Part shown: positions 8,906 through 9,132 of the stretch, in pieces
Numbering within the stretch: position 1 is the first letter of the stretch
Layout of the letters: each line of letters opens with the position of its first letter
From: Rhizodiscina lignyota
Lineage: Eukaryota
Direction of reading: 5' to 3'
Length of the DNA: 64,000 nucleotides
NCBI GenBank assembly: GCA_010015805.1
Contig: ML978123.1
Span: 496,001 to 560,000, forward strand
Notes under the pieces: model-generated
Told to the model about the DNA's origin: nothing
Seen by the model: only the letters and a program-made list of their open reading frames with translations
The model's database searches: none
Translations under genes and position numbers: made by a program

Positions 8906-9132
8906 TCAGTTGTCTGCTGGCTCGTCGGGCTTGTATTGTATGATGGTGCGCTTCTCTATCGGTTGCTCAGGCTTGTACTGAATGATGGTGCGCTTCCCTC
9001 GAGTCCTGGTCGTTATTAGATATCTCCATGTTAACATTGGCTTATGTCAGCTCGTGCTTACTCGACCGGCAACGGTGCCGCCAATACATAGTTTCCCAGC
9101 GCGACGAGCAGAATCGTGGTTGCGAATTTCAT
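8906..9132 (-). CDS. Small secreted Kex2-processed repeat precursor (RiPP/KEP precursor B), 56 aa
   Basis: Exons 9132-9062 and 9005-8906, with a 56-nt GTAAGC...CTAAT...CAG intron. Translation: MKFATTILLVALGNYVLAAPLPVETRGKR-TIIQYKPEQPIE-KR-TIIQYKPDEPADN*. A probable 5'-UTR intron ends just before ATCAAAATG, and there is a TATA-like run near 9254-9263. Confidence 0.85.

Follow-up and report, generated by a model that had tools for sequence, protein, structure and literature searches.

Kex2-processed repeat proteins (KEPs) combine a signal peptide with repeated units placed between dibasic sites, an architecture shared by the precursor described here. The two surveys of such proteins (Umemura 2020, PMC7329392; Le Marquer 2019, PMC6339444) both worked from annotated proteins, with a minimum of three repeats. 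Where KEPs are linked to DUF3328 genes, Tyr is enriched in the repeats (65.6% vs 38.2%), and the DUF3328 genes peak at the position adjoining the precursor gene (PMC7329392). That the DUF3328 enzymes are di-copper C-H oxidases is a recent finding, and substrates are known for few of them; in CctR, two HxxHC motifs form the essential di-copper site and are required for activity (PMC12435403). Pathways that employ a single DUF3328 enzyme, with no tyrosinase in the cluster as described and with a Tyr that is either internal or on the C-terminal side of the residue it is joined to, are known from the sources on AprY and asperipin-2a (PMC6514808) and on GigB and the epichloecyclins (PMC10540207), while phomopsin uses five DUF3328 oxidases (PMC7329392).

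The 64,000-nucleotide stretch of Rhizodiscina lignyota analyzed here (the window) includes an apparently intact ascomycete dikaritin cluster with the gene order D1(+), precursor B(-), precursor A(-), D2(+), tyrosinase(+), D3(+) and D4(+) (Table 1). Within this DUF3328/tyrosinase cluster, precursor B is in all likelihood a genuine gene for a Kex2-type precursor. By analogy with the systems above, we consider it fairly probable that the product is a RiPP precursor, processed by Kex2 and cyclized through Tyr by a DUF3328 copper oxidase of the cluster.

Table 1. Coordinates of precursor B, its putative upstream elements and the other genes of the cluster (positions in the window)
Feature	Position	Strand	Characteristics
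Precursor B, exon 1	9062..9132	-	71 nt; 23 codons + 2 nt; signal peptide and start of pro-region
Precursor B, intron (predicted)	9006..9061	-	56 nt
Precursor B, exon 2	8906..9005	-	100 nt; two KR-TIIQYKP cores, TGA end
TATA-like element TATATATATA	9254..9263	-	about 125 nt upstream of precursor B ATG
Putative 5'-UTR intron of precursor B	9139..9188	-	50 nt; GTAACG..CTCAC..CAG
D1 (DUF3328/UstYa oxidase #1)	7508..8669	+	PF11807 match; 261-aa model, one TM helix, HHLHC + HNDHC
Precursor A	10795..11341	-	signal peptide, 49-nt GC-AG intron, 7 YDIDP cores between KR
D2 (DUF3328 oxidase #2)	11933..12817	+	DUF3328 (PF11807) match; HQLHC + HTFHC
Tyrosinase	13174..14865	+	PF00264; intact 462-aa 7-exon model, N-terminal hydrophobic anchor
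D3 (HxxHC-pair oxidase-like)	15200..15913	+	single exon, Cys-rich; HVEHC + HSEHC
D4 (DUF3328 oxidase #4)	16510..17563	+	PF11807 match; HSLHC + HLDHC

Gene structure and detection of precursor B

The product of precursor B (56 aa) is predicted from two exons on the minus strand (9132–9062 and 9005–8906), after splicing of one intron. The initial annotation had proposed this 56-nt intron, the removal of which would yield a 56-aa protein with a signal peptide and two KR units, and our analysis of the sequence agrees with that model. The ATG at 9132 has an A at position -3, the unspliced frame reaches a stop after 24 codons, and the intron contains a GTAAGC donor, a CTAAT branch sequence 14 nt from its end and a CAG acceptor. 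The repeat frame would be preserved by 49 GT/GC..AG pairs, but a consensus GTAAG donor occurs in just one of them, the 9061–9006 intron. The primary structure proceeds from a signal-peptide-like N-terminus through a short pro-region to the two KR-TIIQYKP units. The N-terminus, which was called as a signal peptide by a crude rule together with hydropathy, includes a basic n-region, an h-region with a peak Kyte-Doolittle value of 3.1, and an A-x-A-P-type cleavage context. In both units TIIQYKP is followed by an acidic, Pro-containing follower, and the repeats are spaced 14 aa apart. The GC3 value of the gene is 68%, as compared with 41% GC in its intron and 3' flank. Two ATGs lie upstream of the start codon, one out of frame (9163) and one in frame (9159), and it is possible that splicing of the candidate 9139–9188 intron would take out both. 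Among the sequencing runs listed, no RNA run was found for 7450–9300; the contigs of the one run listed (X1), which are possibly the source data and hence not independent support, match positions 7300–17700 letter for letter without joints.

The two KRTIIQYKP copies differ at exactly three of nine codons, and all three differences are synonymous (ATT/ATA, CAG/CAA, CCT/CCC), for which the chance is 0.009–0.026, depending on transition bias. Over the next five codons, four differ non-synonymously (E/D, Q/E, I/A, E/D). The initial annotation had taken the synonymous differences as a sign of constraint on the protein; the differences themselves were confirmed, but the test amounts to moderate evidence only, because the core boundary was drawn post hoc and because of the four non-synonymous codons that follow it. 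We would, with moderate confidence, read the repeats as a conserved core with a drifting follower. Precursors usually combine a conserved core that contains Tyr with an acidic follower that has diverged, as do the core and follower of GigA (PMC10540207).

A scanner that looks for a signal peptide, at most one intron and a dibasic-flanked repeat returned only precursors A and B from the window of 64 kb, with B reported twice because two ATGs are in frame. As the scanner had been written with precursor B in view, its detection was expected. Of 43 stretches (355 kb in total) around the DUF3328 matches of this genome, 12 gave matches with the same scanner, amounting to 13 distinct genes, in contrast to no match in 17 stretches of control DNA (170 kb) or in the window after Markov shuffling (640 kb). 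By these controls, such gene models are not products of chance and are concentrated at DUF3328 loci. That a small tandem duplication and splice-like words merely came together by chance is highly improbable in the face of this contrast, although such a reading could appeal to the failure of Tandem Repeats Finder at score 30 to report the repeat and to the post hoc nature of the synonymous-difference test.

Two of three single-exon window proteins tested occur letter for letter in the public protein collection. A word-index search with the repeat exon of precursor B, using a query that held 14 intron-derived residues, gave no matching protein among those of 25–81 aa or of 82–2000 aa; in the latter range there were six candidates, none of them scored. 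The annotation of this genome is thus present in the collection and precursor B was not retrieved from it, which fits the annotation having missed the gene; that it would be missed by automated annotation, as had been suggested, is probable. No homologue was found by phmmer among 1.84 billion representatives, the single match being an unrelated tandem-repeat ORF without KR units, and none by a degenerate TIIQYKP core pattern in the JGI metagenomes, where the two matches are the same single-copy chance sequence, with neither repeat nor signal peptide. Within its own genome the exact core pattern occurs only in the two cores of precursor B, and near matches are at control level (33 vs 28 in the control). 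In a literature search lacking most subscription journals, no publication was found for the motif TIIQY, and the combination of two precursors with DUF3328 gave only a bacterial match, again with most subscription journals outside the scope.

The surrounding cluster and the convergent gene D1

All four oxidase models of the cluster (D1–D4) contain two HxxHC motifs. D1, D2 and D4 match PF11807, while D3 has the HxxHC pair only and no Pfam match; its ESM Atlas neighbors are ascomycete hypothetical proteins, with the UstYa cluster at 0.86. The tyrosinase would have a UstQ/PhomQ-like role. No methyltransferase was identified between 7.4 and 17.6 kb on the coordinates of the window, and no isoflavone reductase or transporter gene in the B–D1 block. 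Elsewhere in the genome there are at least six further genes that, like D3, are Cys-rich and have the HxxHC pair.

D1 has the TM helix and the HxxHC(x)nHxxHC arrangement of a DUF3328 copper oxidase, in a model that depends on two weak introns. This model includes five exons, one of which is a 6-nt micro-exon (Cys-Leu, 8186–8191) inside the first HxxHC motif and is a likely cause of mis-annotation. Intron 1 (124 nt) must skip an AG located 6 nt after the branch A, and intron 3 has weak branch and acceptor signals. The homologous model contains no stop or frameshift, and D4 has matching exon junctions. Because intron 1 of precursor A and intron 2 of D2 require the same AG skipping, and because of the junctions common to D4, D1 is probably intact. 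A quick tree of DUF3328 (57 rows, i.e., 60 chains less one duplicate and two short fragments) places D1 on an unresolved long branch, and its best match in the genome is D4 at only 32%. A search with the last exon of D1 found no relative, and D1 itself was not retrieved from the collection that holds other window proteins, which could reflect mis-modelling or weak expression. ESM Atlas matches to exon 2 were bacterial only and under 0.9, and were rejected. Scans for a small secreted ORF upstream of D1, as an alternative partner, found none.

Precursor A is arranged head-to-head with D2. Precursor B lies on the same strand, 1.66 kb downstream of A, and the mature sequences of the two are unrelated (93% of shuffles score as well). 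While the repeat units of A are 92% identical, the two repeats of B are more diverged. The X1 contigs break, with raised depth, in the 51-nt repeat of A (10817–11126), so that the repeat number in the assembly is uncertain. Its first intron (11220–11268) is GC-AG, and its stop (10795–10800) is inside a GTAAGT donor-like word directly after the last core, at which splicing could lengthen the C-terminus. Between B and A, a 190-codon frame (9579–10151) without Pfam match or paralogue was not treated as a gene, and 95 nt (10094–10188) match G000:C2:674103-674197 with 78% identity, apparently non-coding at either site and perhaps representing a degenerate repeat of small size. To the right of the cluster (18476–28846 and 44604–45251) are about seven divergent MYND-finger-like genes, with PF01753 confirmed for the three scanned, and a Zn2Cys6 transcription-factor gene is located at about 22537–24034 within this array.

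The stop codons of precursor B and D1 are 236 nt apart in convergent orientation, and D1 is the immediate neighbor; in this the initial annotation was correct. As a sign of pairing, the convergence fares less well. In the table of repeat precursors at DUF3328 loci of this genome, in which four start positions are approximate, 13 of the 16 other precursors are head-to-head with a DUF3328 gene, two are in tandem and one is non-adjacent. Convergence is therefore not evidence of a B–D1 pairing, and the tail-to-tail arrangement, which is atypical here, weakens the reading of a dedicated pair. Promoter k-mers common to B and D1 were not above those of random sets.

PF11807 has 89 matches at 36 loci in this genome, or about 57 canonical genes after chaining; the mean computed from 9399 counts in 1461 strains (PMC7329392) is about six per strain. 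At least 16 different Kex2-repeat precursors lie beside DUF3328 genes, and many of their cores are rich in Tyr, Trp or Cys. Among the 36 loci, in the flanks fetched, it was only at the present one that our scans detected a pair of unrelated repeat precursors of which both have an oxidase as immediate neighbor. Another locus has two unrelated KEPs 5.3 kb apart (L044:8290-8739(-) and L044:2960-3394(-)), one of which is head-to-head with a DUF3328 gene, while the other, with a two-Cys repeat, is separated by unrelated genes. Twenty 10-kb flanks of multi-oxidase loci contained no further repeat precursor. At G000:C11:154632-162317 (L070, L071) a tyrosinase occurs with several DUF3328-type genes, and no repeat precursor was found in the flanks fetched.

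Small ORFs with a signal peptide (56–85 aa) were found at L059:4973(+)/L060:260(+), L062:2755(-), L074:3255(+), L075:6532(+), L035:6128(+) and L065:9250(+), and a 158-aa ORF with two near-identical units at L056:3047(-). They have one to three basic cleavage sites, and most have a TATA element. These ORFs are candidate one- or two-core precursors below the KEP thresholds, although the single-site scan behind them also gave three matches in 170 kb of control DNA. Given precursor-like genes of 56–85 aa at other DUF3328 loci, the size of precursor B is not unique.

Proposed pathway for precursor B and alternatives to it

Precursor B has two conserved cores, each directly after a KR site; its processing and modification, the ring size and the choice of enzyme are proposed here by analogy with characterized systems. 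Precursor B would feed a small pathway of its own, the second one within the larger tyrosinase-type dikaritin cluster. The spliced mRNA would be translated to the 56-aa protein, which would enter the ER. Cleavage by Kex2 after both KR sites, followed by Kex1-type trimming, would free a 12-mer and a 13-mer, each starting with TIIQYKP. Before trimming of the follower, the monoisotopic masses would be 1457.777 and 1502.725 Da for the linear peptides and 1455.761 and 1500.710 Da for the cyclized ones. The likeliest route to the modification, whether before or after these cuts, and one which we put forward tentatively, is that the adjacent D1 acts alone, without the tyrosinase, on the model of AprY, which acts alone for asperipin-2a. 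The membrane-anchored di-copper D1 would oxidize the beta C-H of one core Ile to form an aryl-alkyl ether to the Tyr phenol, with the loss of 2 H. By our own atom counts, a 14-membered ring would result from the Ile at i-2 and a 17-membered ring from the Ile at i-3. Removal of the variable acidic follower by peptidases and secretion would complete the pathway. The tyrosinase, together with D2, D3 and D4, would act on precursor A, which resembles ustiloxin and phomopsin in its Tyr-x-Ile core; the D2–tyrosinase–D3–D4 block is located beyond A, which fits the need of such cores for UstQ, UstYa and UstYb.

Several findings speak against D1 acting alone. Neither B nor D1 has a relative that we could find across species, and many DUF3328 loci lack a detectable repeat precursor (only the 12 of 43 stretches above gave matches). 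The orientation is tail-to-tail, introns 1 and 3 of D1 are weak, and there is no promoter motif in common beyond chance. D1 also sits on its long branch in the quick tree, with a best match of only 32% in the genome, and was not retrieved with its own last exon. Moreover, some loci have three to six oxidases with one precursor, and phomopsin employs five, so that the four oxidases here could all serve A.

It is a rather unlikely alternative that precursor B is a second substrate of machinery which includes D2, D3, D4 and/or the tyrosinase, with D1 as one of several oxidases serving both A and B; the Tyr might, for example, be hydroxylated to DOPA and then cross-linked to Ile or Lys. Such sharing would agree with the location of B on the strand of A, 1.66 kb away, within an uninterrupted group comprising the four oxidases and the tyrosinase, and all the oxidases are predicted to be membrane-anchored in the secretory pathway and would meet both precursors. 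The clusters with one or more precursors, and their co-expression, in Venturia inaequalis (PMC9632046) point the same way. On the other hand, the cores of A and B lack significant similarity and have opposite Tyr/Ile polarity, the characterized ustiloxin cyclization by UstQYaYb acts on a Tyr-x-Ile core (PMC6514808, PMC9233826), and no promoter motif is held in common above chance. We are similarly doubtful that precursor B, although real, yields linear, unmodified Kex2 peptides of a signal- or hormone-like kind while the four oxidases all serve A, a third option beside the dedicated oxidase and the shared enzymes of the initial annotation. According to PMC7329392, 78% of KEPs have no DUF3328 gene nearby and KEP genes often neighbor other KEP genes (767 cases); KEP-derived linear peptides are documented (PMC9769878), the second KEP of L044 lies about 3 kb from the DUF3328 gene with unrelated genes between, and the convergent orientation of B and D1 is atypical. 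These points have to be set against the position of B between two cluster members with no gene separating it from D1, against a core that holds Tyr and beta-branched residues, and against the absence of any such gene from 170 kb of control DNA, which makes a chance landing at this site unlikely unless the gene is co-selected.

Less probable again is that an older module, once with more repeats, has fallen silent or is decaying, and that precursor B, perhaps together with D1, is what is left of it. The two repeats of B, more diverged than the 92%-identical units of A, would suit a remnant, as would the lack of relatives, the weak splice signals of D1, the out-of-frame ATG at 9163, which only the putative 5'-UTR intron could remove, and the fact that neither B nor D1 was retrieved from the annotated collection. 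But precursor B has kept its open frame and high GC3, its signal peptide is intact, the two KR sites, the consensus intron and the TATA element are still present, the core differences are all synonymous, and the D1 model is without stop or frameshift and has the exon junctions of D4.

To return to the action of D1 on precursor B, its fullest form is a nested, tyrosinase-independent B+D1 module, by which one locus would give two unrelated macrocycles of opposite polarity and in which B would stand for a hidden class of precursors. We regard this as speculative and somewhat improbable. Precursor A would give a Tyr-to-Ile ring, and precursor B a new, strained Ile(beta-C)-O-Tyr cyclophane whose ring is reminiscent of the 14-membered cyclopeptide alkaloids of plants. 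The hidden class would comprise precursors of 55–85 aa with one or two cores, which may be substrates for many orphan DUF3328 genes.

Comparison with known systems

Precursor B has the three sequence features of a dikaritin-type precursor, namely a predicted signal peptide, a repeated core between KR sites and DUF3328 genes in the cluster. With two repeats, as against the three-repeat threshold for repeats between dibasic sites, it falls outside the KEP definition while being KEP-like in its working. As the published surveys are confined to annotated proteins with three or more repeats, precursor B exposes a blind spot in genome mining.

The surrounding cluster resembles those of ustiloxin and phomopsin (UstA/PhomA, UstQ/PhomQ, UstYa/Yb) in its tyrosinase, its several DUF3328 genes and the Tyr-x-Ile core of A between KR sites. 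It differs from these, as they are described, in that they have one precursor type with 8–16 repeats and a methyltransferase. Of the EDYXI motif that typifies their Tyr-x-Ile cores, A has Tyr-x-Ile without ED, while B has Ile-Gln-Tyr, i.e., the opposite polarity.

Asperipin-2a from Aspergillus flavus (AprA and AprY; PMC6514808) is similar to B–D1 in that one DUF3328 oxidase is associated with a Kex2-type precursor. AprY makes ethers from Tyr side chains to beta-carbons, and the four-gene cluster is given in that source without a tyrosinase. Its core, FYYTGY, contains three Tyr residues and becomes bicyclic through two such ethers, whereas each core of B has one Tyr, with Ile or Thr as possible partners. 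A single asperipin-like ring is a possible mechanism for B. The isoflavone reductase and transporter gene of the asperipin cluster have no identified counterpart in the B–D1 block.

The epichloecyclin system (GigA and GigB) is like B in its signal peptide, KR sites, core and follower, single DUF3328 enzyme and Lys in the core, and has Ile or Pro N-terminal with Tyr internal (PMC10540207, PMC9233826). In contrast to B, it is described with four repeats of 27 aa, a ring of seven residues that joins residue 1 to Tyr7, and a cluster that includes a kexin and a SET methyltransferase. In B there are two repeats, the Tyr is the fifth residue of the core, and both of these accessory genes are missing; the 9-mer core with Tyr7, a preceding Pro and a methylated Lys is likewise absent from it, and no SET gene was found among the window ORFs scanned. 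The initial annotation was thus right that the I-Q-Y order of B is the reverse of the Y-x-I order of A, but in the light of the epichloecyclins and asperipin-2a, as far as these are described, the order is not unusual.

A second precursor in the cluster, which had been seen as a novelty, has a precedent in print, since the dikaritin clusters of Venturia inaequalis are reported to have one or more precursors, with co-expression (PMC9632046). The relevant passages of that paper do not state whether the co-clustered precursors are of unrelated sequence or have separate oxidases, and its Fig. S5 may already show unrelated ones; none of the 11 IQY matches in its effector table is a TIIQY-type precursor. 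Thus the type of system, the polarity and multi-precursor clusters are known, and what is new is a core sequence without detectable relative. The 56-aa, two-core precursor B and its divergent DUF3328 neighbor are about the smallest test pair available, with two genes and a predicted -2 Da product, and they offer a direct test of how oxidases of the same cluster tell two precursors apart. Compared with the systems above, they would add a scaffold that is new and a test of specificity, rather than a new principle.
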